Below, piece by piece: positions 1-55,609 of a DNA stretch of 64,000 nucleotides (positions within the stretch are counted from its first letter, which is position 1; each line of letters starts with the position of its first letter). The position numbers and the translations under genes were made by a program. Source of the stretch: Candidatus Spyradenecus sp. (GTDB taxonomy: Bacteria > Verrucomicrobiota > Verrucomicrobiia > Opitutales > UBA953); contig JAZSKX010000017.1 of the NCBI GenBank assembly GCA_045535075.1, positions 128,001 to 192,000 on the forward strand, read 5' to 3'. The notes below the pieces were generated by a model. The model worked only from the letters and a program-made list of their open reading frames with translations. It was not told the origin of the DNA and did not search any database.

Positions 1-1
1 G

Positions 2-508
2 CCGGCGGATAAGGGAAGCAGCGTCGGGCTTTTCCTGCCTACGGGAACTTCCGAGCTGAAGCGTGTTCTTGACGGAGATCTAAGCGCGGCGAGGAAATGG
101 CTTATTGAGCCTCGCCTTTCCGGACGCGAACTTACGGTCGGACTACTTGACGGCAAGGCAATGGGAATCGTCGAAATTCGACCGAAAGTCGGCGTGTACG
201 ATTTCACGAACAAATACACGAGCGGGAACACGGAATATCTTTTCCCTGCCCCGATTAAAGATGCAAGTGCCGAGAAAATTAAGAGATGCGCCGAACAGAT
301 TTTTTCCTGTTGCGGATGCCGCGACTTCTCGCGTGCGGATGTCATCCTGCTGCCGGACGAGAGTTTTTACTTTCTCGAAGTCAACACAATGCCCGGACTG
401 ACGGCAACAAGCCTCTTGCCGAAAAGCGCCTCGTGCGTCGGCTTAGATTTTCCCGCGCTAACGGCGGCGATGATTCGCCCCGCGATTGAGCGTTTTAAAA
501 ATCGCTAA
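2..508 (+). CDS. ddl: D-alanine--D-alanine ligase, C-terminal part (5' end outside window)
   Basis: Frame open from base 2: PADKGSSVG, YDFTNKY, SRAD and FLEVNTMPGLTATSLLP ATP-grasp motifs. Confidence 0.93.
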   Translation, partial: PADKGSSVGLFLPTGTSELKRVLDGDLSAARKWLIEPRLSGRELTVGLLDGKAMGIVEIRPKVGVYDFTNKYTSGNTEYLFPAPIKDASAEKIKRCAEQIFSCCGCRDFSRADVILLPDESFYFLEVNTMPGLTATSLLPKSASCVGLDFPALTAAMIRPAIERFKNR

Positions 509-543
509 GTCGAAAAATTCCCGAAAGCCGTTTTGTTCCCGAA

Positions 544-1797
544 CTAACTTGCATTCAGCTCCCGAACGATTTCCGCGGGAGCGCGTTCTTCGTCGAGCAG
601 TTTTTTCATGCGCGCCATGGTCGGTGCGGCGTGCGTGAAAAATCTTTTGTACGCGGCACAGAAATAATTCAACCCCGGCTCGCCGTCGGGCGATATGCAG
701 AAGCGATGCTTGGGGCATTCGCCGTTGCAGGCAAAGCGCACGCCGCATTTTCGGCAAACGCGCGGGAGCGTTTTCAGCTTCATTTCGCCGAAACGTTTTT
801 GCGCCTCTGAATTTGCCAACACGCCGAGCTTTTTTTCTAAGAGATTCCCGAGCCTGAACCGCGGATAAACAAAATGGTCGCAGGAAAAAACATCGCCGTT
901 GTGTTCAAGCGCGAGTGCCTTGCCGCATTTTTCGCGAAAAACGCAAAGCGGCGCGGGAACGCCCGCCCAAGCACAAAGCGCAACATCAAAAAGCTGAACG
1001 AATGTTTTCCCGACATCGCGCCGCACCCAAACATCGTAAATTTCACAAAGAAATTTTCCGTAATCTTCCGGTTTTACGGACCACGGCATAACGTCGCTCC
1101 CGCCAAGATTTCCGCTCAACAAATCCGGCGCCGAAGCAAAGCGCATCGGAGCGTCGGCAGGCGGCGCAGGACGCTCGACAAGCGGGATAAACTGAATAAA
1201 GCCCGAGCCGATTTCCCGCAAAAATTCATAAACTTCAACTCCGCAGCGAACGTTGTGTTCGCCGACGACCGTCAGCGTATTGAATTCCGCTCCGAAACGC
1301 TTGAGCTGTGCGATTCCGTTCATCACCAAATCAAACGACGGCGTTCCCGCGCGCGTAACGCGATTGGCGTCGTGGCATTCCCGCGGGCCGTCGATGCTTA
1401 CGCCTACGAGAAATCCGTTGTCCGCCAAAAAAGCCGCCCAGTCTTCATTGATTAAAGTTCCGTTAGTCTGAAATGCGTTTTCAATGCGTTTCCCGTCGGC
1501 GTATTTTCTTTCAAGTTCGAGAACTTTTTTAAAAAAATCAATTCCGAGAAGCGATGGTTCGCCGCCCTGCCAAACGAAGCTAACCTCGGGAACGTCCTGC
1601 GCGGCAATGTAATCGCGAATAAACGTTTCGAGCACGGCATCGCTCATTTTCCATTCTTTTCTCTGCGGGAAAAGAGCCTGCTTTTCCAGATAATAACAAT
1701 ACGTGCAGTTCAGATTACAAATTGAACCGATCGGCTTTGCCATTACGTTAAACGCTTTCGGCTCGCCGTTGGCGGAAGTTTTCTTCGCGGACTTCAT
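544..1797 (-). CDS. Anaerobic sulfatase maturase (radical SAM/SPASM, anSME/AslB family)
   Basis: CNLNCTYC motif, WQGGEP, SPASM cysteines (CVFREKC, SCDH, CRKC..C.GECPKHR, YFC); start placed at ATG 1797. Confidence 0.93.
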   Translation of the reverse strand: MKSAKKTSANGEPKAFNVMAKPIGSICNLNCTYCYYLEKQALFPQRKEWKMSDAVLETFIRDYIAAQDVPEVSFVWQGGEPSLLGIDFFKKVLELERKYADGKRIENAFQTNGTLINEDWAAFLADNGFLVGVSIDGPRECHDANRVTRAGTPSFDLVMNGIAQLKRFGAEFNTLTVVGEHNVRCGVEVYEFLREIGSGFIQFIPLVERPAPPADAPMRFASAPDLLSGNLGGSDVMPWSVKPEDYGKFLCEIYDVWVRRDVGKTFVQLFDVALCAWAGVPAPLCVFREKCGKALALEHNGDVFSCDHFVYPRFRLGNLLEKKLGVLANSEAQKRFGEMKLKTLPRVCRKCGVRFACNGECPKHRFCISPDGEPGLNYFCAAYKRFFTHAAPTMARMKKLLDEERAPAEIVRELNAS

Positions 1798-1906
1798 GTC
1801 GTTTGTTTTACGCCGCCCGAGCGAAATTCGCAAACGGATTTAAGCCTGCGGAAACAAGTTGCGGACGGGATTTACAAAAATGCGGAAATTGGCTTAGGCT
1901 TGCGCT

Positions 1907-2731
1907 ATGATTTTTTGGAGTATTGCGGGAACGCTGTTTTTGGTCACGGCGCTTTGGCTTGGCGTTGCCGCGTGGCGGGACCGCCAAAACCGGGAGCGCT
2001 TTTTGTCGGCTCCGCTTCCGAAAAACTGGGCAAAACTCATTCGTATTCATGTGCCGATTGCCGAAAAAATCCCGCGGGAACTACGTCCGCGATATGCTCG
2101 CCGCATTAAAGCGTTTTTAATGGAAAAAACATTTGAACCCTGCGGCGGGCTTGCAGAAATCTCCGATAAAATTGCGCTTATCGTTGCCGCGAACGCGTCG
2201 TTGCTCGCACTCGGACGCGATGTTCCCGCGTGGCGCGCCTTGCATTCCGTTTTGATTTATCCGCGTGCGTTCCGCCTGGATTCTCCGGAAGACGATTATG
2301 CGGGGAGCGCCGAAAGTGAGATTTTACCGATTCCAGCCGAGGAAGAATCTGCGGAGAACGACGGCGAATCACGAAGCTTCGGGAGCGTTATTTTTTCACA
2401 GGAACGCATTCTGCGCGATTGCGCGTTTTCTTCCAATATTCAAAACGTCATCATCCATGAGTTCGCTCATCAGTTTGCCGACACGGAGCCGCTGTTTTTT
2501 CCGCGGGAACGACTCGCCGAATGGGAAACACTTTTTCAAAAAGAAATGGCGAAGCTTCAATCCGGAGCAAGCGACACCATTTTGGACGAATACGGCGCCG
2601 ACGATCCCGCCGAATTCTTTGCCGTAAGCACGGAAGCCTTTTTCGGAACACCGCAGGCGCTTCGCCGCGCACATCCGGAAGTTTATGCAGCGCTTGCCGC
2701 AATTTACGCGCTCGATCCCGCAAGCTGGTAA
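1907..2731 (+). CDS. MtfA / peptidase M90 family zinc-dependent protein with N-terminal TM segment
   Basis: NVIIHEFAHQ, LDEYGADDPAEFFAVSTEAFF, HPEVYAAL motifs. Confidence 0.88.
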   Translation: MIFWSIAGTLFLVTALWLGVAAWRDRQNRERFLSAPLPKNWAKLIRIHVPIAEKIPRELRPRYARRIKAFLMEKTFEPCGGLAEISDKIALIVAANASLLALGRDVPAWRALHSVLIYPRAFRLDSPEDDYAGSAESEILPIPAEEESAENDGESRSFGSVIFSQERILRDCAFSSNIQNVIIHEFAHQFADTEPLFFPRERLAEWETLFQKEMAKLQSGASDTILDEYGADDPAEFFAVSTEAFFGTPQALRRAHPEVYAALAAIYALDPASW

Positions 2732-2749
2732 TTCGTTTTGAGGGAATCG

Positions 2750-3298
2750 ATGAGAGTTGAGGGCTGAGAGCTTAGAGGGAAATGCGTTCCCGCAAACGGG
2801 AAAAAGGATTTAGAAAACCTTTTTCGCGAAGCGAGGTGCAAATACCTATCATCTCTTACTTCTCCTCGCTCATCCGAAACTCTATTTATAGAGAACCAAA
2901 GAGCTCTGGATACACACATCAAATATTACAGCATCAAAGAGTTTTTTGATCATGAGGCGTGGAGGAACTTACAAAACAGGCTACCGAAATATTTTCTCTC
3001 CGTTCAATATTTTAACCGTCACGGAACTCTCGTCCGTTCTGAAAAAGAAAGCCTCGATGCCGGAACCGGAGAAAATTCTGCTTATTTCAGCCCGACATTA
3101 GAACCGAATTCAAGAGACGAACATTCAAGGAGATACATCTGCCTTTGGAGCTCAATGAGAATCAAAGCCACGGGCACGACCGACCGAATTTTAGCCATAA
3201 ATGACTATTCAAAGGAAATAAGAAAAGTTCATATCGAACTCCTGAAAAAAAACAAACAAAAGCGGAGAAACCTCGATTCTGAATCAATGGACCGTTGA
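2750..3298 (+). pseudogene. Orphan reading frame: ATG at 2750, in-frame TGA at codon 6, then 176 uninterrupted codons
   Basis: Manual translation; GAGGG upstream of the ATG; absent from the ORF track; no recognisable motif. Confidence 0.4.
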
Positions 3299-3322
3299 AT
3301 TGTAGCAATCGCCTTGCTCAAA

Positions 3323-3354
3323 AATAAAGCCTCCGCGGGAACGGAGGCTTTATT
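3323..3354. terminator. Bidirectional intrinsic terminator downstream of ileS
   Basis: AATAAAGCCTCCG-CGGGAA-CGGAGGCTTTATT, perfect 13-bp stem. Confidence 0.85.
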
Positions 3355-3371
3355 GAAGCGACAGATTCGGA

Positions 3372-6182
3372 TTAAACTTCGTTCGGGAATTTCTCCTTAA
3401 GAGCGTCGCGGCAGCGCGAGGAAACTTTGCCGAACGTTCCCGCGTCGACGAGTTCCGGCATCCAGCGCCACGAGCGCGGGCAACGGACGTAGCCGAGCGT
3501 TTCCGCCTTTACGGCTTCAACGGCGAGCGGCGTTCCCGCAGGCGCATCGGAGAGGCGCACTTCCGAGACGATAAAGGTTTCCGCGAGCAAGGCGGCGTGC
3601 TTTTTCAAAAGCGCGAAGGTTGCATCGGCGGAATCGCCGGAAATCGTGAGCACGGCTTCGAGCGATTGCCCGATGACTTTCGCAGAGCGAAGCGCGTCGA
3701 GCTTCAGATTCACGTTGTCGAGCACTTTGAGCAACGCGTCGAATTCCGCCGCTTCTTTCTCGAAAACGCATTCCGGATTTACCTGCGGCCAATCCTGCAA
3801 AAGAACGGAATCCTTCGCGTATTCGTTTTTCGCCGTGAAAAATCCCCACGCTTCGTCCGTCGTAAACGGAAGCATCGGCGCGAGCATTTTGACGTAAGCC
3901 GTGAAAATCGTGTAAATCGCGGTTTGCGACGAACGGCGTTCCCGCGAGTTCGCGGCGTAGGTGTAAAGGCGGTCTTTGAGAATGTTGTGATAGGTTGCCG
4001 AAAGCGTTTCCACGGTAAACGCGGCGATGGCGGCGTAGGCTTTGTGGAATTCGCAGTTTTCGTAGTTCGCGGTAACGTCGGCGAGAAGGCGGAAGAATTT
4101 CGTGAGCGCCCACTTATCGATCAGCGTTAGCTCCGCAAACGGAACGGCGTCTTTCGCGGGATCGAAATCGTAAAGATTCGAAAGCTGGTAACGGAGCGTG
4201 TTGCGAATGTTGCGATACTGCGTTGCCGTCGCGTCGAGAATGCCGTCGGAAAGCGGAATATCGTTCTGATAATTTTCCGAAGCGATCCAAAGGCGAACGA
4301 TGTCGGCTCCGTATTTGGAAACGTAGCCGTCGGCGGTTTGCGGCTTGCCGTCGGACTTGGAAATTTTCTGGCGCGTGCCTTCGTTGACGACAAATCCGTG
4401 CGTGATGACTTTTTTATACGGTGCGCAGCCGAAATTGATAACGCTCGTCCACAGCGAAGATTGGAACCAGCCGCGATGCTGGTCGGAACCTTCGAGATAC
4501 AAGTCCGCCGGGAACGCGAGGTCCGCGTTGCGCTTCAAGACGGCGGCGGAAGACGAGCCGGAATCGATCCAAACGTCGAGCGTGTCCGTTCCCGCGACGA
4601 GTTTTTCCGGCGCCGGCCAGTTGGCGGGAACATCAATTCCCGCGAGTAGTTCCGCCGGGGATTTTTCAAACCAAATATCGGTTCCCGCGACGGCGATTTT
4701 GTCTGCGATACCGTTGATAACGTTTGCATCGAGAAACGCTTCGCGCGTGTCCGCGTCGTAGAAAACCGGAATCGGCACGCCCCAGGAGCGTTGGCGGGAA
4801 ATACACCAGTCCGGGCGACCTTCAACGGCGGCGCGAATGCGGTTTTCGCCGCTGGCGGGAATCCAGGAAACGTCGCCGATTTGGGCAAGCGCCTTGGCGC
4901 GCATACCGTTTTTGTCGAGCGCGACGAACCATTGGTCCATGGCGCGGAAAATCACCGGCGTTTTCGAGCGCCAGCAGTGCGGGTATTGGTGGTCGATTTT
5001 CGCGACTTTTAAAAGCTTGCCCGAAGCTTCGAGCAGTTTCAAAACTTCGATGTTTGCCGGGCATTTTCCGTTGGTATCCAAAACGGAGATACCGACGAGC
5101 GACGCGGGAACGCGACCGTCATTGGCGTAAACGCCTTCGTCGTTGACCGGACAATAAATTTCGATGCCGTAGCGCAGGCAGGTTTGGTAGTCTTCAAGCC
5201 CGTGCCCGCCGGCGGTGTGGACGCAGCCCGTTCCCGCGTCGGTCGTGATGTAATCGGCGCAAACGACGGGCGAAGTGCGCGCGCAAATCGGATGTTGCGT
5301 TTGAATGCCTTCGAGGGTTTTTCCGAGGACTTTCGCGCCGCGCGCCGCGCCTTCCAAGCCGCAATCGGCGATGAATTTTTCCGCGAGAGCGTCGGCAACG
5401 ATGTAAATTTTTCCGGCGTGGGAAATTTCGACGTATTCAAGTTCCGGATGCACGGCGACAGCCATGTTTGCGGGAATCGTCCACGGAGTCGTTGTCCAGA
5501 TGACAAAATTCTTTTCCGGCGCGTCGATTTGCGGGAACGCGACCCAAATTGACGGCGAGGTGTGGTTTTTGTATTCGATTTCGGCTTCAGCGAGCGCGGT
5601 TTTGCAGGGAATTGACCAGTAAACCGGCTTTTTGCTGCGGTAAATCAAATCGTTCGCGACCATGTTTGCGAAGGTGCGGACGATGTCGGCTTCGTAGGCG
5701 GGATTTTTCGTTTTGTATTCCGCCGCCCAGTCGGCGAGGATGCCGAGGCGCTTAAATTGTTTGCGCTGTTTTTCGATAAAGCTTTCGGAAAATTCGGCGC
5801 AGGCTTTGCGGATTTCGAGCGGCGTGAGCGTTTTTTCCTTGGCGTGGAGTTCTTTCATCACCTTGTGCTCAATCGGCAAGCCGTGGCAGTCCCAGCCGGG
5901 AACGTAGGGGACGCGGAAGCCGCGCATCGTTTTGTAGCGCATGATGATGTCCTTGAGGAGCTTGTTGAGCGCGGTGCCGATGTGCACGTCGCCGTTGGTG
6001 AACGGCGGCCCGTCGTGGAGAATGTAAGATTTTCCCGTTCCCGCGTTCTTTTGCTGAAGGCGGCTGTAAAGGTCTGTTTCCTCCCAAAACGCGATGCGCT
6101 TGGGTTCGCGGGAGGTGAGATTTGCCCGCATCGGGAAATCCGTTACGGGGAGATTCAAGGTGTCTTTAAGTTCCACTGCCAT
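3372..6182 (-). CDS. ileS: Isoleucine--tRNA ligase
   Basis: HDGPPFTNGDVHIG, GWDCHGLPIE, WTTTPWT, WCISRQR, EGSDQHRGWFQ, KISKS. Confidence 0.98.
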   Translation of the reverse strand: MAVELKDTLNLPVTDFPMRANLTSREPKRIAFWEETDLYSRLQQKNAGTGKSYILHDGPPFTNGDVHIGTALNKLLKDIIMRYKTMRGFRVPYVPGWDCHGLPIEHKVMKELHAKEKTLTPLEIRKACAEFSESFIEKQRKQFKRLGILADWAAEYKTKNPAYEADIVRTFANMVANDLIYRSKKPVYWSIPCKTALAEAEIEYKNHTSPSIWVAFPQIDAPEKNFVIWTTTPWTIPANMAVAVHPELEYVEISHAGKIYIVADALAEKFIADCGLEGAARGAKVLGKTLEGIQTQHPICARTSPVVCADYITTDAGTGCVHTAGGHGLEDYQTCLRYGIEIYCPVNDEGVYANDGRVPASLVGISVLDTNGKCPANIEVLKLLEASGKLLKVAKIDHQYPHCWRSKTPVIFRAMDQWFVALDKNGMRAKALAQIGDVSWIPASGENRIRAAVEGRPDWCISRQRSWGVPIPVFYDADTREAFLDANVINGIADKIAVAGTDIWFEKSPAELLAGIDVPANWPAPEKLVAGTDTLDVWIDSGSSSAAVLKRNADLAFPADLYLEGSDQHRGWFQSSLWTSVINFGCAPYKKVITHGFVVNEGTRQKISKSDGKPQTADGYVSKYGADIVRLWIASENYQNDIPLSDGILDATATQYRNIRNTLRYQLSNLYDFDPAKDAVPFAELTLIDKWALTKFFRLLADVTANYENCEFHKAYAAIAAFTVETLSATYHNILKDRLYTYAANSRERRSSQTAIYTIFTAYVKMLAPMLPFTTDEAWGFFTAKNEYAKDSVLLQDWPQVNPECVFEKEAAEFDALLKVLDNVNLKLDALRSAKVIGQSLEAVLTISGDSADATFALLKKHAALLAETFIVSEVRLSDAPAGTPLAVEAVKAETLGYVRCPRSWRWMPELVDAGTFGKVSSRCRDALKEKFPNEV

Positions 6183-6326
6183 GATTAAATAGAGGACAAA
6201 AATTTTAAGCGGTAAGTATGTCTTTTTCCCCGTAAGCCGTCAACCACGGGAACTGATCGGTTTTCGCTCCACTGCAAAATAAAAGTCTGCTTGCATTACA
6301 CACATCTGTTGCGCATTATCTCCCCA

Positions 6327-7115
6327 ATGGCAAATACTACCGATTTGATAGGCGATAGCGTCCGAAGCCCGGAGCCAACAAAACTGTTTTGCATCTCGCT
6401 CAAAAGGTCTCCTTCCCGCCGGGAAAGTATGCAAAAATTCGCTAAAATTCCCGGAATAGAGTTTGCTTTTTTTGACGCCGTCGATGCGAAAACCGAAGAA
6501 TTGATTCCTTTTAAAGAACATTTTTATTGTTCCCGCACGGCAAATCTCTTGCGAGGACGGTCGCTTGAAGAAGGCGAAATCGCCTGTTTTGCATCGCATT
6601 TTCTACTTTGGGAAAAATGCATCAAGCTCAACGAACCGATTGTCGTTTGCGAAGACGACATTGAGCTTGCCGCCCACGAAGATTTTTTGGTGCGCCGAAT
6701 CCGGGAGATTCGCCAAGGCAATCACGAATACGTACGCCTTTTGGCAACGAAAAACAGGAAGACATACGCATTTGCGCCCGATTTAAAAATCGCGTTTGAT
6801 TCGCTCGCGGGAACGCAGGCTTATTACATTACTCCGGCTGCGGCGCGAAAATTTATTACCCATGCAAAAACATGGTTTATGCCGGTTGATGACTATATGG
6901 ATTTGTATTTTATTCACAAAGTTTTAAACATTGTCGCAGATTCCTTTCCCGTAAGAGGAACGGATTTTCCGTCGGATGTTGCTCGAAAACACGGAAAAAA
7001 ACGACGACTCTCGGGAACGAAAATCACCTCTGAACTTTTTCGTGTTTATCTGTTTTTGCGAAAAATTTTCTGGTTCGTGAAAAATCCGGCGCTCGCCAAA
7101 ATCGCGATTTCCTGA
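6327..7115 (+). CDS. Glycosyltransferase family 25 (LPS biosynthesis)
   Basis: ISLKRSPSRR, FFDAVD, GEIACFASH, CEDD, GTQAYYITP; start uncertain (6291 TTG or 6327 ATG). Confidence 0.9.
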   Translation: MANTTDLIGDSVRSPEPTKLFCISLKRSPSRRESMQKFAKIPGIEFAFFDAVDAKTEELIPFKEHFYCSRTANLLRGRSLEEGEIACFASHFLLWEKCIKLNEPIVVCEDDIELAAHEDFLVRRIREIRQGNHEYVRLLATKNRKTYAFAPDLKIAFDSLAGTQAYYITPAAARKFITHAKTWFMPVDDYMDLYFIHKVLNIVADSFPVRGTDFPSDVARKHGKKRRLSGTKITSELFRVYLFLRKIFWFVKNPALAKIAIS

Positions 7116-7254
7116 AAAATTCCCCTCCGAATGCGGGTGTTCGAAGCTTCGAACACTCTTTTCTTTTGCGCGTATTGCGGGAGAATGCTAGGATTCCTGC
7201 CAATTCGGAGCGCCTTTCGCGACTTTGAAAACTCAAAATACGACTCGCACATTC

Positions 7255-9072: not shown

Positions 9073-9079
9073 AATCCGT

Positions 9080-9108
9080 TTGACAAAGCCCGCGGGAACG
9101 GCGAGAAT
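9080..9108 (+). promoter_or_regulatory. Sigma70-type promoter of tRNA-Pro
   Basis: TTGACA-17 bp-GAGAAT, 15 bp upstream of the tRNA. Confidence 0.6.
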
Positions 9109-9123
9109 CGTTAACTCATTTTT

Positions 9124-9500: not shown

Positions 9501-9526
9501 TTTGTTGCTGCGGGAACAGCCTCGCC

Positions 9527-46053: not shown

Positions 46054-47288
46054 TTTGCAATCCCCCAGCGTTCGGATAACGGATAAAGAATAAAACTTGC
46101 GCGCCCGACAGCATCATTTGCGGGAACGCAACCCCAACCGCGTGAGTCAAAACTGTTCCCGGAATTATCTCCAAGCGCATAATAAAAACCTTCGGGAACG
46201 GTAAATTTCTGATTCAGCGGCTTTGAATACGGATTTTTCCCGCCGGATTGCGGTAAATATCCGTAATATTTTTCGGAAAATACGCACTGATTATTCTTAT
46301 CAAAAGCATCTGAGCCTTCAATAATCTTTCCGTTTCTGTAAAGTTTATTATCAGCTATATAAAGCGTATCTTCCGGCTTTCCCGCAAGGCGTTTAATATA
46401 GTAAAGTTCGGCATTATTAAGCCCGGGAATATTATGCGTGCGAAAAACGAAAGGATCTCCGACTTCCGGTTCTTTGAAATGATAGACGAATCGGTTAACG
46501 ATAACCATGTCTCCGCTGAAAATTTTAAATTTCAGGAAGCTCTCACCGGCATTAACCCGAATTCCGGTACGCAGACAAGTCTCTCCGCGTAAATTTTTAA
46601 AAGCCTTTCCGGACTTTCCGGATTCGGAAATTGAATTTATCCATCGTTCCCGCAAAGATTTTGTCGTATCCTTCGCATATTCCGGAAAAAATCGTTCCAA
46701 AAATACGGAATCCATCGAAAAATCGCGCGGACAATTTATACGAACAGGAGTATTTCCTACATAAACTTCAAATAAATCTTCATTACCTGCTCTTCCGACT
46801 TTATTTACACAAACGGAAACTTCTCCGCTTACCGGAGCTTTAATTTCATAAAACGAAGCACCGTTAAAAATCCGCTCAATCCACTTTTCGATTTCGTTAA
46901 TTTCTCCCGAATAAACTTCAGAAGTCATCCCGTTGTAAGTCGGGAACATAGAATTTGTCGGAATTTTAAAAAGTTGAAAGAAAAAGCCTCGGATTCCTCC
47001 GGCAAGAATTGCCGCAACAACGATGAGTTCGACCCACTCCGGAATTGTTTTCTGCGGGAACACCGATCCGCCGAGTTTTTTTAATGTTTCGCTCAATTTT
47101 TCGGAAGCCGATTCAATCGCATCTTTGGTCGTCGCATGCTTCAATGCGTCAACCTCTGCGTGTAATTGCTCTTTTTCCGCCTCACTGAAAAGATCTCCCC
47201 GATAGTTTTCGACTTTTTTTGCCGCACCGAGGAGTAATTCCGCTTCTTTTCCCAAATGAGAAGATTTTTTCCAAAACAGGAAACTCAT
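46050..47288 (-). CDS. lepB: Signal peptidase I
   Basis: IPTNSMFPT, YIKRL, GDNSGNSFDSR.WG. Confidence 0.9.
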   Translation of the reverse strand: MSFLFWKKSSHLGKEAELLLGAAKKVENYRGDLFSEAEKEQLHAEVDALKHATTKDAIESASEKLSETLKKLGGSVFPQKTIPEWVELIVVAAILAGGIRGFFFQLFKIPTNSMFPTYNGMTSEVYSGEINEIEKWIERIFNGASFYEIKAPVSGEVSVCVNKVGRAGNEDLFEVYVGNTPVRINCPRDFSMDSVFLERFFPEYAKDTTKSLRERWINSISESGKSGKAFKNLRGETCLRTGIRVNAGESFLKFKIFSGDMVIVNRFVYHFKEPEVGDPFVFRTHNIPGLNNAELYYIKRLAGKPEDTLYIADNKLYRNGKIIEGSDAFDKNNQCVFSEKYYGYLPQSGGKNPYSKPLNQKFTVPEGFYYALGDNSGNSFDSRGWGCVPANDAVGRASFILYPLSERWGIAK

Positions 47289-47311
47289 AATTTTAAAAGT
47301 TTAAAAAAAAT

Positions 47312-47349
47312 AAAAAGCGTTCCCGCAGTTTAACGGGAACGCCTTTTTT
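47312..47349 (-). terminator. Hairpin after dnaN built from an inverted CGGGAAC pair
   Basis: AAAAAGCGTTCCCG-CAGTTTAA-CGGGAACGCCTTTT. Confidence 0.8.
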
Positions 47350-47359
47350 TGAAAAACAT

Positions 47360-48484
47360 TTATTTTCGCTGCGGCATTACCACGCAGAGGAAGGATTCGT
47401 CCTTCGTTTTGAAAACGCCCGGGCTTAAGTCATCTTTGAATTCAAAAACAACGGAATCCTGTGTGAGAGCCTTCAGCGGATCAGTGATAAATTGCGGATT
47501 AAAGGCAATGCGCGCTTCGGGACCTTCGTAGCGAACGGCAAGCTTGTCGCTCGCTTCACCGTATTCCGTAGAGCTTGCCGTAATTTCGATTTGATTTGCC
47601 GAAATATTAAGAACAACGGAGCTGTTTTTATCGGTAGTTACCTTAGCAGCCTGAAGCACGGCGCTGAGAAGATCTTCACGTTCCACTTCAATACGGTTTC
47701 CGGAATCTTTCGGAATAACACCTTTGTATTGCGGATAATTGCCTTCAACAATCTTAGAAACAATACGAATTTTATCCATCAGACCGCCGTTATTTTCGTT
47801 CACGTCGATTTCAAAGACAACCTGACGTTCACTGAGCGCGAAACGGATTTTTCCGGAGCTTCCGAGTTGTTTTTGAAGTTCGGAAATCGTTTTAGCGGGA
47901 AGGATAAATTGCGTCGGATTTTCCACCGAAACGGACATTCTTCTTTCGCAAGTCGCTAAACGACGCCCGTCCGTTGCAACCAGAGCAACTTTGTCTTCGT
48001 TGAAACTGAAAAGCACGCCGTTGAGGACATAGCGATTTTCGTCTGTCGATTGCGCGTAGGAGACGGATTTAATCATCGTCGACAAATCCCCCTGCTCAAT
48101 TTCGAATGCAAACTCATCACCGACGGGCGGTTCCGGCGGGAAATCCACCGAAGGAATTCCGATCGGGTTAAATTTGGAGCTCCCGGAAGTAATTTTTACC
48201 CGGCTTTCGCTTTGCATTTCGACAAAGACATCGCTGCTTTTGAATCCGCTGACGATATCTTTGAGCCATTTCGCCGGAAGCGTAATCTTTCCCGCGTCCA
48301 TCACTTCCGCCTTAATCTTGCAGGAAATGCGAAGATCAAGGTTCGTCGTCGTCAGGCGGATCGAATCGTTTTCCGCTTCAATAAGGACGTTGACGAGAAC
48401 CGGGAGGCTAAGACGATTGTTAACTACACTGACAACCTGCCCCAAACCGGCGGCAAAATGATCGCGATTGATTTTAAATTTCAT
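47360..48484 (-). CDS. dnaN: DNA polymerase III beta sliding clamp
   Basis: RYVLNG, VATDGRRL, GNYPQY, IAFNP, VVMP. Confidence 0.96.
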   Translation of the reverse strand: MKFKINRDHFAAGLGQVVSVVNNRLSLPVLVNVLIEAENDSIRLTTTNLDLRISCKIKAEVMDAGKITLPAKWLKDIVSGFKSSDVFVEMQSESRVKITSGSSKFNPIGIPSVDFPPEPPVGDEFAFEIEQGDLSTMIKSVSYAQSTDENRYVLNGVLFSFNEDKVALVATDGRRLATCERRMSVSVENPTQFILPAKTISELQKQLGSSGKIRFALSERQVVFEIDVNENNGGLMDKIRIVSKIVEGNYPQYKGVIPKDSGNRIEVEREDLLSAVLQAAKVTTDKNSSVVLNISANQIEITASSTEYGEASDKLAVRYEGPEARIAFNPQFITDPLKALTQDSVVFEFKDDLSPGVFKTKDESFLCVVMPQRK

Positions 48485-48538
48485 GGAACTAAAGCTTGTT
48501 TCTTTTAAACTTCGTTTGCAAGTTTTCTTCTCCGAAAT

Positions 48539-48754
48539 TTATTCACGTCGATAATCGTTTCTTTGTTTTTCGTTTATAAATTTTTTTACAATTAATATAG
48601 GCTGTGAATTGGGTGAATAAGTTTTTAAATCCGTTTATTTATGCGCTTTCCACGCCGATTAAAAATTTGAATAAGTCTGTAAGGAAAATGTTCGGAGTCT
48701 GTTGATAAAGATGTTCACCGACTTATTTCTTATTTATTCACAGAATTATTAACA
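48539..48754. other. Candidate replication origin (DnaA-box cluster plus AT-rich tract)
   Basis: TTATTCACA at 48734 plus five 1-mismatch variants in both orientations. Confidence 0.65.
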
Positions 48755-48835
48755 GGGATTTTTCGGAAAACACCTTTTAAAGTACGGAAATAATTTCTTG
48801 GCGTTCCCGTGAAAATTGCTTCATGCTGATTTGCT

Positions 48836-50629
48836 ATGGAAATTTGGTTTAACCCGGCTCAATCACTTGAAGCAATTCTAAAGAAAATTGCGGGAACGCA
48901 GGAAGGCTTTTCCGAAGAATTTTCTCCGGATGTCCGTGCCGCCGATCCGCGATTCGGCGATTTTCAGGCAAACGGCGTTTTGGCGGAAGCTAAGCGTGCA
49001 AAAAAGAACCCGCGGGAACTCGCGCAGCAATTTGTCGAAGCTTTGGAAAAATCCGGCGAATTGGACGCTGAATTGGTTTCGATGAGTATTGCCGGGCCGG
49101 GATTTATTAATTTTAAATTTTCGCCGAAATTCTTCGGACATTGGATTGCGAAGTATCGCGATGCCGAAAATCTCGAAAAATCCTCGGGAACGCTTTATGC
49201 CGGTAAAAAGGTCGTCATTGATTACCCATCGCCGAATACCGCCAAGCAAATGCACGTCGGTCATTTGCGCATCCTCGTCATCGGCGAGGCGATTGCGCGT
49301 TTGCTCCGATTCTGCGGTGCAAACTTGGTGCGCGACAATCATATCGGCGATTGGGGAACGAATTTCGGGATTCTGATTTTTGAAATTAAACGCACGGGCT
49401 ACACGTTCCCGCAGGACGATAGCGTGGCGCTTGCCGAACTGGAAGAGCTTTACAAGGCGGGAACGGCCTATGTAAAAGACGAAGAAGCGCATCCCGGAGC
49501 ATTTGACGAGGCGCGTTTAGAACTTGTCAAACTTCAACAGGGCGACCCGGAAAACCTCGCACTTTGGGAACGTATCGTTAAAGTTTCCAACGCCGCTTGC
49601 GAAAAAATCTATGCGATGTTCGGCGTACATCCGGATGTTACACTCGGGGAATCTTTTTATCGTGATAAAGTTGAGCGTATTTATAAAGAACTTTCCGAAT
49701 GCGGAATTGCTGAGGAAGACGAAGGCGCACTTATCGTGTGGAATGATTCCGATCCGCGCTACGCCCGCACAAACGAAAATGCTGCTCCGTTTATTGTACG
49801 CAAAAAAGACGGTGGCTCCAATTACGCTTCGACAGACCTTGCAACCTTGCTCTATCGCGTTGAACACTTCAATGCCGATGAAGTCGTTTATGTAACCGAC
49901 GACCGCCAACAGGATCATTTTCGCATGCTGTTTTTGACGGCAAAGCGTTGGTTTGAGCAAAAAAATTATCCGTTCCCGTCGCTCCGCCACGTGATGTTCG
50001 GAAAAATTCTCGGCGAAAACGGTAAGCCGATTAAGACGAAGGAAGGCGGTTCCATTAAATTGAAATCTTTGGTGGATGAAGCCACGGAACGCGCATTTAC
50101 GATTGTTACCGAAAAAAATCCGGATTTGCCCGAAGAAGAAAGAAAACAGATTGCGGGAACGATCGGCATTGCAGCGATTCGCTATGCGGATTTGCTTCAA
50201 AACCGCACGATCAATTATATGTTTTCTTGGAATCGCCTTTTGGCTTTTGAAGGCAATACGGCTCCGTATTTGCTTTACGCGGCGGCTCGCATCCAATCCA
50301 TTTTCCGCAAGGCGGGAACGAGCTTTGAAGCTATCGCCGAGAACAACGAAATTTTCTTCCCGAAAACCGAAGGAGAACTTGCTCTTGTTCGCAAACTTAT
50401 GGGTTTTTCCACTGCGGTTCAAACGGCGTGCTCGGAACTCAAGCCGCACTACATCTGCACTTACCTCTTCGAGCTTGCGGGAACGTTTTCTTCCTTCTAC
50501 GCCGCAGACAAAGTTATGGACGACGATGCAGACACGCGCAACTTACGCCTTAGACTCTGCGCAAACACGTATATGATTTTGAAAACCGGTTTGCACTTGC
50601 TCGGAATCGAGACGCTCAACCGTATGTAA
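48836..50629 (+). CDS. argS: Arginine--tRNA ligase
   Basis: [37 protein letters not shown]-terminal RM. Confidence 0.97.
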
Positions 50630-50642
50630 GGAGAAATTACAC

Positions 50643-51491
50643 ATGGAACAGAAAAAAGATCCTGAGTGGAAAATTGCAAAGGAATTTTCGGAAATTATTT
50701 ACGAAAAATGCGATGAAGGCATTGCTCGCGTGACGATTAATCGTCCGCACCGGCGCAACGCATTCACGCCGGAAACGGTCAGTGAAATGTACGAGGCATT
50801 TTTAGATGCGCGGGAAGACGTTAAAATCGGCGTCGTTTTACTTCGCGGAATGAATCCTCAAACCGACGGAAAGTTTGCTTTTTGTTCCGGAGGAGATCAA
50901 AAACTCCGCGGAGATAAGACCGGCGGTTACACGTCCAAAAGCGGTGTTCCGCGTCTGAATGTTTTGGATCTCCAGCGCTTGATTCGTACGATGCCGAAAG
51001 TCGTTATCGCACTTGTTGCCGGCTACGCAGTCGGCGGCGGGCACGTACTTCACGTTGTTTGCGATTTGACGATTGCCGCGGACAACGCGATTTTCGGGCA
51101 AACGGGGCCGAAGGTCGGCAGTTTCGACGGAGGTTTCGGCAGTTCTTATTTGGCGCGTCTTGTCGGGCAGAAAAAAGCGCGTGAGATCTGGTATCTCTGC
51201 CGCCAATACAACGCGAAAGAAGCGCTCGAAATGGGCTTGGTAAATACGGTTGTTCCCTACGATCAACTCGACGCGGAAGGTGTTCAGTGGGCACGGGAAA
51301 TCCTGACAAAATCGCCGATTGCCATTCGCTGCTTGAAGTCTGCATTTAACGCAGAGCTTGACGGGCAAGCCGGAATTCAAGAGTTGGCGGGAAATTCCAC
51401 CCTGCTCTATTATCTGACCGACGAAGGCAACGAAGGCAGAAAAGCCTTCCTCGAAAAGCGTTCGCCCGAATTCGGCGATTGGCTTCCGTAA
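50643..51491 (+). CDS. menB: 1,4-dihydroxy-2-naphthoyl-CoA synthase
   Basis: [32 protein letters not shown]. Confidence 0.96.
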
Positions 51492-51711
51492 CTGAAGGAA
51501 ACTCTGTAAACAGAGCTTTTGCTTACAGAGGAGAGGTATTTTCGGAAAAAGAATTTCAAAAGCCTTTTTGCCGTAAGCCAAACGCATTTGGCTCTAAGCT
51601 CTCGTTTATCCTCCATTACCGGAATCTCTAAAATTTTAACTTTAGAAATTCTCTTAATAAAAAAAAGGCATCGTTCCCGGTTGAGAACGATGCCTCGGAA
51701 AGACTTTAGGC

Positions 51712-51900
51712 TTATTTCATCAGCAACATGTTACGTGCGCGTTTGATAGCTTTTGTAACATGGCGCTGTTGCTTCGCGGTCAGTCCCGTAATACGGCGCG
51801 GCAAGATTTTGCCGGTTTCCGTGACATAACGGGAAAGGACTTCCACATCGGTGAAGTCAAAGTCTAACGGTGTTTTTGAATGTTGCTGTGATTCTGCCAT
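51712..51900 (-). CDS. rpsR: 30S ribosomal protein S18
   Basis: [25 protein letters not shown]. Confidence 0.95.
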
Positions 51901-52036
51901 AATCGAACCCCCATTAACTCAAAATTCAGTTCCCGCCGCAAGTTTTATTTTTTAGGAGAATGAAAACTCAAATCCCGGAATTTCTAAAATTATCTTGATT
52001 CTTGCGGGAACGAATTTCCGATTTTTTAATCTCTTT

Positions 52037-53224
52037 ATGAATTGGAAAAAAATTTTTCTCGCGATAGTGATTCTTTGTCTTGTTCCTGTATGGGTCTATT
52101 TTTGCATGGCAATGGCAGTTGTCGCGAGACTTTTAAATATGCTTCCTTTACTGACGATTCCGATGATATTTCTGATTTTTTTCAGCGGACTTTTTTTGCT
52201 CGCTGCGTGGTTTTTCGGAAAGGCAAAAATGGCAAAATATAGTGCGTTTACGATATTCGGTGCCGGTTTTATCGCCGCTTGCGGCTGTTCGATTGATTAT
52301 TGGATCGATTGGCAAACGCGTTCCCGCTACGACGTTGTTCGGGCAAATATCAATGAATGGGATTATCGTCCGTTTCGGGAAGAAAATAAGTTGATCGTTC
52401 CCGAAAAACCGACTCCGGGACGACTCACGGGAACGCTTCCGAAGTTGAGCGGTGCTTATGCGCTTTACCCCGTTTACGCGGCGGCGGTTCAGGCGATTTA
52501 TCCGCATCCGGAGCATAACGGCTATTATATTTGGGAATTTGTCGATACGACCGGCTCGGATCGGACATTTGAGATGCTGAATCGCGGAGAGGTCGATTTG
52601 ATTTTCGGCGGAGCACCGTCAAAAGCTCAACTCGAAGAAGCCGAAAAAGCGGGAATAAAATATGAAATGACGCCGTTCGGGCGTGAAGCATTTGTGTTTT
52701 TTGTAAATAAGGAAAACCCGATTGACAATTTAACATCCGAGCAGATTCGCGGAATTTATTCCGGAAAAATTAAAAATTGGCGGGAGCTCAGATCTCCGGT
52801 TTCGGAAGAAATCATTGCTTTTCAGCGCAACGAAGGAAGCGGGAGCCAGACGATGCTTGAAAAAATCATGGCGGGAACGCCGATTGCGCCGCCGCCGAAA
52901 GAACGCGTATCCGACGGTATGGGTACAATCCTTACGCAAACGGCGGAATACCGGAATAAAAACAGCGCGATCGGATTTTCTTTCCGTTTTTACACTTTGG
53001 AAATGATGCGCAACGATAAGTTAAAGCTGATTTCAATCGACGGGATTGCGCCGACGAAGGAAAATATCGAAAACGGAACTTATCCGTTTATCGCCGATTT
53101 TTACATGATTTCAGCGCAACCCCGTTCCGAAAATACCCGGAAAGTTGTCGAATTTATGTTTTCGCCTGCAGGAAAAGAGATTATTGAAAAAACAGGTTAC
53201 GTCGCTCTTCCCGTGCCGCTTTAA
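52037..53224 (+). CDS. PstS-like phosphate-binding protein with N-terminal TM helices
   Basis: GREAFVFFVN, LTSEQIRGIYSG, QRNEGSGSQ, IENGTYP. Confidence 0.82.
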   Translation: MNWKKIFLAIVILCLVPVWVYFCMAMAVVARLLNMLPLLTIPMIFLIFFSGLFLLAAWFFGKAKMAKYSAFTIFGAGFIAACGCSIDYWIDWQTRSRYDVVRANINEWDYRPFREENKLIVPEKPTPGRLTGTLPKLSGAYALYPVYAAAVQAIYPHPEHNGYYIWEFVDTTGSDRTFEMLNRGEVDLIFGGAPSKAQLEEAEKAGIKYEMTPFGREAFVFFVNKENPIDNLTSEQIRGIYSGKIKNWRELRSPVSEEIIAFQRNEGSGSQTMLEKIMAGTPIAPPPKERVSDGMGTILTQTAEYRNKNSAIGFSFRFYTLEMMRNDKLKLISIDGIAPTKENIENGTYPFIADFYMISAQPRSENTRKVVEFMFSPAGKEIIEKTGYVALPVPL

Positions 53225-53254
53225 TCTTACAAATTTTTTAACAAAGGATTTTCT

Positions 53255-54418
53255 ATGATTTACGATTTCACTTATTTCAATCCCACGAAAATTTATTTCG
53301 GAAAAAACGCCCTCGCCAATTTGGACGGCGAACTGAAAAACTACGGCAAAAATATCCTCCTGCTTTACGGGAAAAACGCCATTAAGCAAATCGGGCTTTA
53401 CGACGAGATTCTCGCAACGTTGAACGCCTGCGGAAAAAACATCGTCGAGCTCGCTGGAATCAACGCAAACCCGCGCTACTCTCAAGTGCTGGAGGGCGCG
53501 CGCCTCGTTCGCGAAAACAAAATCGACCTGATTCTCGCCGTCGGCGGCGGGAGCGTCGTCGATTGCGCCAAAGCGATCTCCGTTTCCGCCTACGCCGAAG
53601 GCGATCCGTGGCAACGCTACTGGATTGATTTTGAGCCCGTAAACAATCCGATCGTTCCCGTCGGCACTGTTCTGACGATGGCGGGAACGGCATCCGAAAT
53701 GAACGGCGGCTCCGTTATCACGCACGAAGAAAAAATCATCAAAGCCGGGCGCGTGTTCCCGCCGGAAGTCAATCCGAAGTTCTCCGTTCTGAATCCGGAA
53801 TTTACTTATTCCGTGCCGAAACTTCAAATGGTGAGCGGGATTTTTGACATTTTTTCGCACCTGCTCGAACAGTATTTTTCGGGAACGGACGACAACACCA
53901 CCGATTACCTCATCGAAGGCGTGCTTGAATCGCTGATAAACAGTGCCCGTGTCGCCATCAAAAATCCAACGGATTACGAAGCCCGAAGCAATATCATGTG
54001 GTGCGCGACGCTCGCGCTCAACACCGTTACCGGGCTTTCAAAAACTCAGGACTGGGAAGTTCACATGATTGAACACCAGCTCGGTGCTTACACCGATTGT
54101 CCGCACGGCTTGGGCTTGGCGGTTATTTCCGTGCCGTATTATAAATTTATTTACAAATACGGACTTCCGAAATTTGTGCGCTTCGCCGAAAAGATTTGGA
54201 AAATCGAGTCCGACGGCAAGACGGACGAAGAAATCGCTCTCGCGGGAATTGACGCGCTCGCGGCGTTTATTCGCGAACTCGGGATCCCGTCTTCCCTGCG
54301 GGAACTCGGCGCAACCGAAGCCATGCTCCCGGAAATCGCCCGCACTACCGTCAAAGGCGGCGGCTACAAAAAACTTTCCGAATCCGACATCCTCGCCATC
54401 CTCCGCGCCTGCTACTAA
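53255..54418 (+). CDS. Iron-containing alcohol dehydrogenase (butanol dehydrogenase-like)
   Basis: NPTKIYFG, AVGGGSVVD, HMIEH, HGLGLA. Confidence 0.92.
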   Translation: MIYDFTYFNPTKIYFGKNALANLDGELKNYGKNILLLYGKNAIKQIGLYDEILATLNACGKNIVELAGINANPRYSQVLEGARLVRENKIDLILAVGGGSVVDCAKAISVSAYAEGDPWQRYWIDFEPVNNPIVPVGTVLTMAGTASEMNGGSVITHEEKIIKAGRVFPPEVNPKFSVLNPEFTYSVPKLQMVSGIFDIFSHLLEQYFSGTDDNTTDYLIEGVLESLINSARVAIKNPTDYEARSNIMWCATLALNTVTGLSKTQDWEVHMIEHQLGAYTDCPHGLGLAVISVPYYKFIYKYGLPKFVRFAEKIWKIESDGKTDEEIALAGIDALAAFIRELGIPSSLRELGATEAMLPEIARTTVKGGGYKKLSESDILAILRACY

Positions 54419-54519
54419 GCGCGGGAACGCGGTCCGAAGGAGAACAGGAGTCCCGCCTGTTTTGTGCGAACTAAAACCCCGCAAACTACTCTAGAAAAGT
54501 TCGGGAACAACCCGAATTC

Positions 54520-55584
54520 CTATTTTTCAAAATGCCGACGACAGGCTTTTGCCTGCCGCACGTAATCATCCGCATACGCATCTGACTCTCCGTTGCCGAC
54601 AAAAGCCAATTCCTCAAAAATCTTTCGCTTGAAATTTTCAACAGCACATTGAATTCGTGCTACGTCACGATACGTTTGCGTTCCCGCCGCAATCGCGTCG
54701 GATACTTCACGAAAAAGTTTTCGCGACGGGACAAAGCGTCCGCAAATCGAAATTTCGTCCGTTGCCTGTTTTCCGGGATTCCATTCCAATTTCGGATAGC
54801 AAAGACCCGTTCGAAGATCTTTCTTCGTCTTTTTAATTTTCCGTTCGTGAGCAAGTTCCTCGCAATTTTCCTGCGTCAGCCCGCACAGGATAAACGCTCC
54901 TTTTTGCCGCCGGACACGCGGATTCGACATCCGGGGAGAAACTATCCAGTTGTGCCCCCACTCTTCGCGGATTTTCCTTTTCATGAACTCCACGTCTTCT
55001 CCGAAGTTATACCGTTCCTGCCGAACTTCGTGTCTTAAATGCCAAATATTGAAAGTTTCGTTCATACGGGCAACATTTGCAAGCGCCGAGACCAAATCGC
55101 TGTCGACAAACTTTTCGCGACTTGCGGGAACGCGAAAAACGACAATATTGGGACAAAAGAAAATCGAATTTCGCGGATCGCACGCATTTTTTACAACCTC
55201 GTTTGCTGACCATCCGTCCACCGCCATGAACCACGCCGTCGCCAAATCTGACGTTACATCGAGAATCCTTGTTGGGAACTCGTAGTGCTGCATTTGGCAA
55301 AGTTTGTCAAATGTCGTCGGGCAATTTTCAAAAAGCACGGGAACACGGTTCAAGACATCTTGAAAAATTTGCTTTTCCCGCTTGAAGAGCTTTTCCGAGC
55401 GAAAAATATTCGGAAGCGAATCCGGGAAAAATCCGCACTCCCCGCGAAAAAAGTAGCGCGCGTTCCCGTCGGCATCGGACGAAAACTCCCGGATTCCCGC
55501 ATCCAAGAGTTCCCCAAGCGAATCAAACGTCAATGCGCTCGCCGCACACGGCGGACGCCCCGCCAACCCAAATTCCGGAAACAT
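54520..55584 (-). CDS. FRG domain protein
   Basis: YFFRGE, MQHYEFPTRILDVT, NPRVRRQKGAF. Confidence 0.88.
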   Translation of the reverse strand: MFPEFGLAGRPPCAASALTFDSLGELLDAGIREFSSDADGNARYFFRGECGFFPDSLPNIFRSEKLFKREKQIFQDVLNRVPVLFENCPTTFDKLCQMQHYEFPTRILDVTSDLATAWFMAVDGWSANEVVKNACDPRNSIFFCPNIVVFRVPASREKFVDSDLVSALANVARMNETFNIWHLRHEVRQERYNFGEDVEFMKRKIREEWGHNWIVSPRMSNPRVRRQKGAFILCGLTQENCEELAHERKIKKTKKDLRTGLCYPKLEWNPGKQATDEISICGRFVPSRKLFREVSDAIAAGTQTYRDVARIQCAVENFKRKIFEELAFVGNGESDAYADDYVRQAKACRRHFEK

Positions 55585-55609
55585 ACTCCCCTAATTTCTC
55601 TGCTTTTCG

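Follow-up and report, generated by a model that had tools for sequence, protein, structure and literature searches.

The question raised by the DNA stretch analysed here is why one short sequence should recur in it at intervals of a few hundred bases. The stretch, referred to as the window, comprises 64,000 nucleotides of a genome of Candidatus Spyradenecus sp. (positions 128,001 to 192,000 of contig JAZSKX010000017.1, C16 in our numbering), and the sequence, referred to as the word, is CGGGAAC(G), which reads GTTCCCG on the opposite strand. The genome holding the window, G000, is represented by an assembly of 1.95 Mb in 18 contigs with 52% G+C, and its relatives within the same genus are designated G001 to G018. 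The density of the word, roughly one copy per 300 bp, is upheld by a force whose target is the double-stranded DNA sequence, not proteins, codons or replication strands. With regard to the nature of this force, we tentatively prefer a drive of the kind associated with the DNA uptake sequence (DUS) of Neisseriaceae and the uptake signal sequence (USS) of Pasteurellaceae, in which DNA uptake would be the step that reads the word.

The abundance of the word is real and very strong. Within the window, GCGGGAAC/GTTCCCGC occurred 124 times, compared to a mean of 4.61 (standard deviation 2.07, maximum 10) in 100 dinucleotide-preserving shuffles, none of which reached the observed number. A preliminary description of the stretch had estimated about 36 copies of the 7-mer within the first 10 kb; counting yielded 37 copies of CGGGAAC/GTTCCCG (21 on the plus and 16 on the minus strand) and 28 of the 8-mer GCGGGAAC, and all nine positions named in that description (222, 953, 1343, 1925, 2074, 2222, 2503, 2786 and 3335) were among the counted GCGGGAAC/GTTCCCGC sites. 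Genome-wide and on both strands, CGGGAAC was present in 6528, CGGGAACG in 5159 (2527 forward, 2632 reverse), GCGGGAAC in 4032 and GCGGGAACG in 3244 copies, which corresponds to about 3.3 copies of the word per kb and about 2650 CGGGAACG 8-mers per Mb. The number of CGGGAACG copies exceeded Markov expectation 75-fold at order 0, 28-fold at order 1, 19-fold at order 2 and 9-fold at order 3. The motif originally put forward, GCGGGAAC(G), is thus hugely enriched, however, a sequence logo anchored on GGGAAC placed the sharper core at CGGGAAC(G). Position -1 of the logo was C in 94% and position -2 was G or A in 85% of cases, with a pyrimidine at -3; on the other side, position +1 was G in 77% and position +2 weakly C, giving the consensus y-R-CGGGAAC-G-c with 14 bits of information in the 7-base core and some 3 bits from flanking positions. 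Beyond these roughly 11 positions the flanks were flat and showed no codon periodicity, and as the information is limited in this way, the word is not a piece of a longer repeat. One-off variants at the tolerant positions were also enriched (857 copies of CGGGAGCG and 800 of CGGGAACA). Two abutting copies of the word form the perfect 14-base palindrome GTTCCCGCGGGAAC, which was found 21 times in G000 and in some cases within genes.

Most copies lie in predicted genes. A codon-usage model called 1424 genes, covering 86% of the genome and agreeing with Pfam inside the window. These genes held 3279 copies in sense and 2161 in antisense orientation, whereas 20 within-gene shuffles of synonymous codons gave 529 and 351 on average and no more than 579 and 407, so that 5440 observed copies stand against about 880, an approximately sixfold excess; shuffling whole codons left 197 sense and 172 antisense copies. 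Both types of shuffle are generous null models because the codon usage itself already contains the word. In addition, the word was denser outside of genes (4.05 per kb in non-coding versus 3.24 per kb in coding sequence), and inside genes all six frame-and-strand classes were occupied, albeit unevenly and with a weak preference for the sense strand (3274 versus 2159 copies). The synonymous and whole-codon shuffles together with the Markov models rule out an artefact of codon usage, amino-acid usage or composition. The statements that the word is non-palindromic and occurs on both strands and in several reading frames stand, and the enrichment withstands codon-aware modelling.

The word also leaves traces in proteins. 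In the IleRS gene of the window, 12 copies, spread over four frame-and-strand classes out of six, encode AGT six times, VPA or VPG three times, AFP twice and RER once, and the imprint of AGT, VPA and RSR/RER tripeptides suggested earlier is hence real. Compared to outgroup proteins, KGT was replaced by AGT, LPE or LPD by VPA and AWP by AFP at word sites, and the outgroups also had HGS and, at one site, a gap in place of the imprinted residues. As the IleRS residues differ from those of the outgroups at several word sites, the DNA word overrides weakly constrained protein positions. Outside of the window, two giant Gly/Thr/Ala/Ser-rich proteins of 4791 and 4270 residues (C5:125845-140217 and C8:185333-198142) are encoded by genes with 69 and 64 copies, respectively, all of them in sense orientation and 57 in each gene sharing one frame. 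The word settles wherever codons permit.

Neither the replication strand nor local composition accounts for this distribution. The leading strand was assigned from G+C skew, which was clear on all large contigs. Among the assignable copies, the leading strand held 3157 (52.7%) and the lagging strand 2829, with a ratio of 517:495 (51%) in non-coding DNA. Inside genes, the orientation of the word followed the sense strand on either replication strand, and two strongly skewed 20-kb bins were explained by the giant genes carrying the word in sense only. These values rule out a polarity of the Chi or KOPS type, in line with what had been expected. The 6511 gaps between copies had a mean of 295 and a median of 208 bases with a coefficient of variation of 1.09 (1.00 for gaps under 3 kb) and a mild excess at 100-400 bases; among them, no even or periodic spacing was seen, and the distribution is nearly Poisson. 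In 5-kb windows along the genome, the median was 17 copies and only 12 of 380 held four or fewer.

The word-poor regions coincide with DNA of presumably foreign origin (Table 1). A similar density had been described across the core genes of the span from 1 to 55,600, which was found for two core stretches but not for the island between them, where a TIR-domain protein and a PD-(D/E)XK nuclease likely form a defence cassette. The right-hand limit of the described span is the edge of a Mu-like prophage, as the word drops in density from the next base onwards. A neighbouring FRG-domain gene (54520-55584) adjoins this prophage. In contrast, a core stretch with 46% G+C (44000-55600) still held 3.79 copies per kb; with the density kept in this stretch, local composition is not the cause. 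Elsewhere in the genome, word gaps of at least 3 kb were located on or beside a C5 methyltransferase, an MmeI-like enzyme and a type I system.

Table 1. Features of the window with their coordinates; word counts refer to CGGGAAC/GTTCCCG.
Feature	Position	Strand	Remarks
Word-saturated core stretch	1..20250	.	69 copies (34 +, 35 -), 3.41 per kb; Pfam housekeeping genes IleRS, GSIII, IDH, PurH and others
IleRS gene	3372..6182	-	Imprinted tripeptides, see text
Five G016/G007-like genes	3372-6182, 9527-11752, 12654-13898, 18701-20245, 29795-31306		Contrasted with the rest of 1-44700
Word-pair hairpin, terminator-like	9468..9500	-	Just 3' of GSIII gene (ends 9527, - strand); 71-nt stretch -30.8 kcal/mol, z -3.7
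Word-pair hairpin	12132..12169	.	A run before, T run after on - strand reading; -21.5 kcal/mol, z -3.85
Word-poor island	20251..24750	.	2 copies, 0.44 per kb; 47.5% G+C; likely acquired defence DNA
TIR-domain protein	22129-23055		In word-poor island; weak match to CAP12/Pycsar effector TIR
PD-(D/E)XK nuclease	23067-24329		In word-poor island
Word-saturated core stretch	24751..55600	.	115 copies (60 +, 55 -), 3.73 per kb
Bidirectional intrinsic-terminator hairpin (predicted)	24769..24817	.	AAAAGCGTTCCCGCG...CGTGCGGGAACGCTTTTTT from inverted pair; -33 kcal/mol, z -6.6; 0/200 shuffles fold as well
Word-pair hairpin	29688..29732	-	Just 3' of catalase gene (29795-31306, -); -29.9 kcal/mol, z -6.2
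dnaN	47360-48484		
Mu-like prophage part, word-poor	55601..63150	.	3 copies, 0.40 per kb; prophage 55601-64000
Gam	60570-61097		Mu-like prophage
MuB/TniB-like AAA ATPase	61260-62336		Mu-like prophage
Large open reading frame	62303-64000		Mu-like prophage; runs off window end

On C16, the G+C skew is negative at 180-200 kb and positive at 200-220 kb, the change of sign falling about 8 kb past the right end of the window, and judging from this flip the replication origin is probably located just outside the window, near 200 kb of the contig.

A 16S primer-type pattern matched no rRNA gene in the G000 assembly. In a DnaN search of public genomes, the closest relatives were gut Opitutales (Candidatus Spyradenecus, Candidatus Spyradosoma and Opitutales bacterium) with 88-97% identity, and their DnaN loci held 9-17 copies of the word in 7.1 kb. 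Within the genus, all 19 genomes carried CGGGAACG in 552 to 7777 copies. All 102 genomes from four sister genera of the same family had at most 383 copies, at or below the level of a reversed-word control; GCGGGAACG was as frequent as the control in 12 further families of the order, and 299 additional genomes, representing another 147 genera of the phylum, held no more than 326 copies of it. The word is thus confined to one genus of Opitutales, Verrucomicrobiota, with background levels elsewhere in the phylum as sampled, and the placement of the lineage outside Neisseriaceae and Pasteurellaceae was correct.

Inside the genus the density is not uniform, with about 2.6-4.5 copies of CGGGAACG per kb in 15 genomes, about 0.65 in G001, G002 and G013 and 0.29 in G014. 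The possibility of motif dialects in sister genomes had been raised. However, samples of 52-91 kb from the four low-density genomes contained no new dominant word; compared with its one-off neighbours the old word was still the commonest, and these neighbours were relatively more frequent, which indicates decay and not a dialect. A candidate dialect in the sister genus g14 (G031, 100-kb sample), where CGGGTAC-like words were modestly rich, was rejected on account of codon-periodic flanks and the lack of a single dominant word. G033, from the sister genus g16, contains a different hairpin-like repeat, CCCAGGGCGTTGCCCT, with about 14 copies in 60 kb, which may be a terminator or REP-type (repetitive extragenic palindromic) element of its own.

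To follow individual word sites between species, eight backbone genes (8.4 kb, codon-aligned) were compared. In these genes G000 is closest to the low-density clade (82% nucleotide identity to G013, 75% to G018), and the high-density genomes G018 and G004 served as outgroups. Fourteen word sites were common to G000 and an outgroup, four of which were kept and ten lost in the low-density clade; no site common to that clade and an outgroup was lost in G000, and 11 sites were private to G000. Thirteen of the 24 word sites of G000 were identical in G018, compared to 1400 of 8262 other 7-mers (odds ratio 5.8, Fisher p 4e-5), and in the reverse direction 13 of 19 (p 1e-6), all p values being rough because overlapping 7-mers are not independent. 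Between G018 and the low-density G013, identity at word sites (4 of 19) did not differ from that at other 7-mers (1525 of 8267, p 0.77), and only 5 of the 24 G000 sites were identical in G013 (2252 of 8262 other 7-mers), although G013 is the closer genome overall. The conclusion stands that the word is specifically maintained in the high-density lineages and evolves like ordinary sequence in the G013 clade, the latter state being derived. An IleRS tree in which the low-density trio was nested in high-density species was withdrawn as a species tree because IleRS is among the exchanged genes (see below), and the polarity of the decay rests on the backbone genes.

Pairs of the word have acquired a second role. 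Inverted pairs of the configuration GTTCCCG-N(0-20)-CGGGAAC occurred 213 times in the genome, compared to 50 in the opposite configuration. Of the former, 159 were wholly non-coding, 120 were followed by a T-rich tail and 75 also had an A-rich lead, and the commonest gap between the two copies was 12 bases. Among intergenic regions, such pairs were present in 57 of the 169 between tail-to-tail genes, in 91 of the 655 between tandem genes and in 6 of the 184 between head-to-head genes. Inverted word pairs are therefore the stems of intrinsic-terminator hairpins, as predicted from their folds, position and T tails; four such hairpins in the window are listed in Table 1. The accessible text of Kingsford 2007 (PMC1852404) reports DUS within about 55% of high-confidence Neisseria terminators, counts of 226 versus 5 for the two configurations of DUS pairs in N. 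meningitidis Z2491, a bias ascribed to the A and T tails, and a role of USS in terminators as well. With respect to phages, none of the 30 IMG/VR contigs bearing the hairpin pattern, the only ones examined, held more than 0.77 copies of the word per kb.

The window further revealed that G000 is a mosaic. Two 20-kb stretches were searched as DNA against the genus, and the IleRS, GSIII, IDH, PurH and catalase genes showed 97-99% nucleotide identity to G016/G007, GH2 and PGI 89-91%, whereas at least nine other genes, including those for an ABC transporter, MetK, LpxB and FtsH, were at most 77% identical to G016/G007 and 77-84% to G013, G001 and G002. The gene order of the window is common to the latter three genomes, and the products of two further single-copy genes were 86% and 80% identical to those of G013 and 65-67% to those of G016, G007 and G010 (G003, 65% and 52%). 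The coding sequence of IleRS was 98.8% identical to that of G016, and 150-base windows along it gave 97-100% apart from the final one (95%); directly 5' of the start codon the sequence is G013-like, and the similarity to G016 stops about 10 bases past the stop codon. In G016, the 40 kb around IleRS are composed of segments with either 97-99% or 65-78% identity, whose counterparts are dispersed throughout G000. Near IleRS, the order of genes differs from that in G000 at almost every gene (G016 C5:251500-291400; G007 C6), yet several genes are 97-99% identical, which renders a comparison of synteny around IleRS uninformative. The simplest reading of these alignments is that G000 combines alleles of two ancestries in one backbone as a result of recent gene-sized exchange between species of the genus. 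An assembly artefact in the metagenome-derived G000 seems an unlikely source of the mosaic because the donor-like genomes are not syntenic.

What, then, maintains the word? In its distribution, the word matches DUS and USS as far as sequence can tell, the terminator pairs included, and a drive resembling that of uptake sequences is the reading we tentatively prefer, without regarding it as established. A DNA-uptake system built on a type IV pilus and ComEC would have the word as its preferred substrate; word-bearing fragments of kindred DNA would be taken up more often and then recombined into the chromosome, and near-matches would steadily be turned into matches by molecular drive where the protein tolerates it. 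With the word and its complement everywhere, paired copies may have been co-opted as intrinsic-terminator stems. Recently acquired DNA, such as the prophage and the defence and restriction islands, is without the word as it would not yet have passed through the process. In the sub-clade of G001, G002 and G013, a specificity factor would have been lost and the word now decays neutrally.

The earlier description had proposed a search for competence genes. In G000, this search identified a pilus cluster with two PilB-like ATPases (MshEN and T2SSE domains), one PilT-like ATPase and PilC, which adjoins the gene for a RecD2 helicase. Further pilus genes encode PilM and a TPR-secretin, and the pilins comprise a 141-residue PilA-like protein and six other N-methyl pilin-like proteins, four of which are encoded in a cluster. 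ComEC, DprA and ComM are also present, so that a type IV pilus set and comEC, dprA and comM were recovered, but no ComEA-type protein.

Several observations weigh against uptake as the reading step. The ComEC of G000 displays the Competence domain only, and no ComEA-type protein was found in the genome, the only strong HHH_3 match lying in an 805-residue open frame that, by its size alone, is taken to be Tex. The same families matched in 6-14 of 14 control genomes, many of them non-competent, and E. coli matched all eight; for this reason, presence of the families is weak evidence. The comparative tests gave uptake no positive support: each of the 19 genomes of the genus, with the four of low density among them, had an intact ComEC, and the three clustered pilus ATPases were found in all 19 (for G012, 82% complete, only one full PilB-like match is listed). 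All 19 genomes also possess 7-11 pilin-like genes, with low-density genomes among those with higher counts. The four clustered minor-pilin genes were full-length and 80-91% identical to those of G000 in G013, G001 and G002, but only 50-57% identical in the high-density genomes G016, G007, G010 and G003. Minor pilins that are intact and similar in decayed lineages and divergent in high-density ones indicate that a pilin receptor does not track the word. Accordingly, no specificity factor co-varying with the word was found among the pilin-like genes, the minor-pilin cluster, ComEC and the pilus ATPases of the 19 genomes. The density of the word is several-fold above that of DUS and USS and within the range of HIP1, the iterated palindrome of cyanobacteria; the word is short, with a core of seven bases; the near-random spacing gives no sign of selection for even spacing; and the mosaic ancestry could stem from any route of transfer. 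The label of an uptake sequence is hence provisional, given the HIP1-like density, the lack of a ComEA-type protein among the genes found and uptake genes that do not track the decay.

As a cause of the decay, loss of competence genes was rejected, since the decayed lineages retain ComEC, the T2SSE ATPases, the N_methyl pilins and the minor-pilin cluster in intact form. A separate observation concerns G001, G002, G013, G014, G004, G012 and G018, which have a fifth T2SSE ATPase (none is listed for G012) and 10-11 instead of 7 pilin-like genes. The additional genes point to an extra pilus- or secretion-type cluster, the presence of which is unrelated to word density.

A second explanation, which we consider rather unlikely but not negligible, is that of a HIP1-like word: a sequence-specific bias of repair, mismatch correction or gene conversion, possibly directed by modification, would convert near-matches within the cell, without any part played by DNA uptake. 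The density, which lies in the range of HIP1 and not in that of DUS and USS (accessible text of PMC4390886), would fit this scenario, as would the uptake machinery that does not follow the decay of the word; the protection of word sites and the enriched one-off variants would be expected of any conversion drive. To our knowledge, no repair or conversion mechanism of this kind has been demonstrated, for HIP1 included, and the word, in addition, is not palindromic. A motif screen together with Pfam identified one MmeI-family type IIG enzyme, three HsdM subunits and two C5 methylases in G000, but neither Vsr nor an N6_N4 methylase. Of these types, only MmeI-family enzymes read asymmetric sites of 6-8 bases that end in AC, as the word does. 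The MmeI-family gene, however, is present in only 8 of 18 relatives and was not found in six high-density genomes that are at least 95% complete (G003, G006, G007, G009, G010 and G016), and the word was rejected as a restriction-modification target of this family. Repair by Vsr in concert with C5 methylation was rejected because no Vsr was found and because of the position of both C5 methylase genes, which reside in word-free stretches where the gene model did not call them, and the three HsdM genes are components of type I systems, whose sites are bipartite. No conserved methyltransferase or repair system fits the word.

A further explanation, which we hold to be unlikely, is that the word is written and kept by an undescribed sequence-specific machine acting at the DNA level, which would be neither the pilus/ComEC apparatus, intact as this is in lineages with a decaying word, nor directed by methylation, for example a motif-directed gene-conversion or repair drive. 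In this case, the near-identical hairpins at gene ends might also be the junctions for whole-gene swaps between species that are otherwise more than 20% divergent.

It appears distinctly unlikely that each copy is of use by itself as a binding site of an abundant chromosomal protein, serving nucleoid organisation or as a mark of 'self' for defence or recombination, and is kept by selection instead of drive. Conservation between high-density species is far above background, foreign DNA is without the word as a self-mark would require, and the wholesale loss in one sub-clade fits the loss of a single reader protein. However, the spacing is nearly exponential, neither periodic nor even, and the copies follow codon opportunity, as in the 64-69 sense copies of the giant Gly/Thr-rich proteins, which fits an opportunistic drive better. 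No candidate binding protein was identified, and there was no sign of phages that mimic a self-mark among the 30 hairpin-bearing viral contigs, all being at or below 0.77 copies per kb. Still more doubtful is a role of the word as packaging or recognition signal for another vehicle of DNA exchange, such as a gene-transfer agent, a transducing particle or an export system, which would follow the same logic of drive. The signature of a drive, the gene-sized exchange of alleles between species and the missing correlation of the word with pilus and ComEC genes would agree with such a vehicle, but the sole prophage in the window is without the word and no word-rich contig was among the 30 viral ones. 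Finally, a polarised signal (Chi, KOPS/FtsK-type), a restriction target, a REP element or miniature inverted-repeat transposable element, or a by-product of codon or amino-acid usage is hardly credible in spite of the G-rich word and its weak sense-strand preference in genes, given a leading-strand share of 52.7% overall and 51% in non-coding DNA, a plausible enzyme that is patchy in the genus, information in only about 11 positions with 5433-5440 of 6528 copies in predicted genes, and an enrichment that survives both synonymous and whole-codon shuffles.

A decision between an uptake signal, the product of a repair drive and other causes would come from the gene that reads the word. The genus offers a natural experiment to this end, in which at least 15 species keep the word and a nested trio plus one further species let it decay at the neutral rate; as the word is kept in some species and decayed in a sub-clade, the reading gene should be findable by association with gene content. 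Independently of the mechanism, the word can be used to tell native from acquired DNA and to predict terminators in genomes of the genus.

Own-DNA recognition is documented in two proteobacterial families only, and an equally clear genomic signature is found here in gut bacteria of another phylum, which are uncultured or barely cultured, with a word density matched only by cyanobacterial HIP1. In the literature, with subscription journals outside the coverage, no description of the word was found, either for the word itself, for uptake sequences or natural transformation in Verrucomicrobia or Opitutales, or for the genus, and the accessible text of a 2025 survey lists DUS and USS alone as cases of sequence-specific recognition of own DNA (10.1101/2025.10.24.684340).

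Among the known systems, Chi and KOPS are likewise short over-represented words on DNA, but they are co-oriented with replication, unlike the word of G000, which is also much denser. HIP1 (GCGATCGC) is not known to us as an uptake signal, and its function has been open for thirty years. It resembles the G000 word in its presence inside genes and in its density, with 300-2700 copies per Mb given in the accessible text of Elhai (PMC4390886) compared to about 2650 8-mers per Mb here, and also in the conservation of its sites, which exceeds neutral expectation (PMC5861425, accessible text). HIP1 differs in being a palindrome with two orphan methyltransferases that is found in most of a phylum, whereas the G000 word is asymmetric, has no conserved methyltransferase and is limited to one genus.

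The USS of Pasteurellaceae (AAGTGCGGT core with AT-rich flanks) and the G000 word share a genome-wide distribution, an imprint of tripeptides on proteins and the use in terminators; the word lacks an extended AT-rich flank, is denser and is spaced nearly at random. The DUS of Neisseriaceae (GCCGTCTGAA core) is bound by the receptor ComP and exists in dialects with a co-varying specificity factor. In the genus of G000, only decay was observed, no ComP-like receptor was identified and the pilin genes do not track the word. DUS is also longer (10-12 bases compared to 7-9) and less dense, with about 0.9 copies per kb (1892 in Z2491, accessible text of PMC1852404; genome size about 2.2 Mb) versus about 3.3. 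The sequence of the G000 word differs from both GCCGTCTGAA and AAGTGCGGT, and with a host in Opitutales, a phylum apart, it is neither a Neisseriaceae DUS nor a Pasteurellaceae USS proper. Weakly constrained protein positions are overridden by USS and DUS as in the IleRS of G000, the tripeptide imprint of USS having been described by Findlay and Redfield 2009 (PMC2817400, accessible text). One configuration of inverted pairs is favoured at terminators in both DUS and the G000 word (226:5 in Z2491, PMC1852404, accessible text; 213:50 here). A type IV pilus set, ComEC, DprA and ComM are encoded in G000 as in the DUS system, but the same families also matched in many non-competent control genomes, and a bias in uptake is putative for G000. 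Like DUS, the word of G000 is non-palindromic and clade-specific, occurs on both strands, in genes as well as in the gaps between them, and is missing from foreign DNA.

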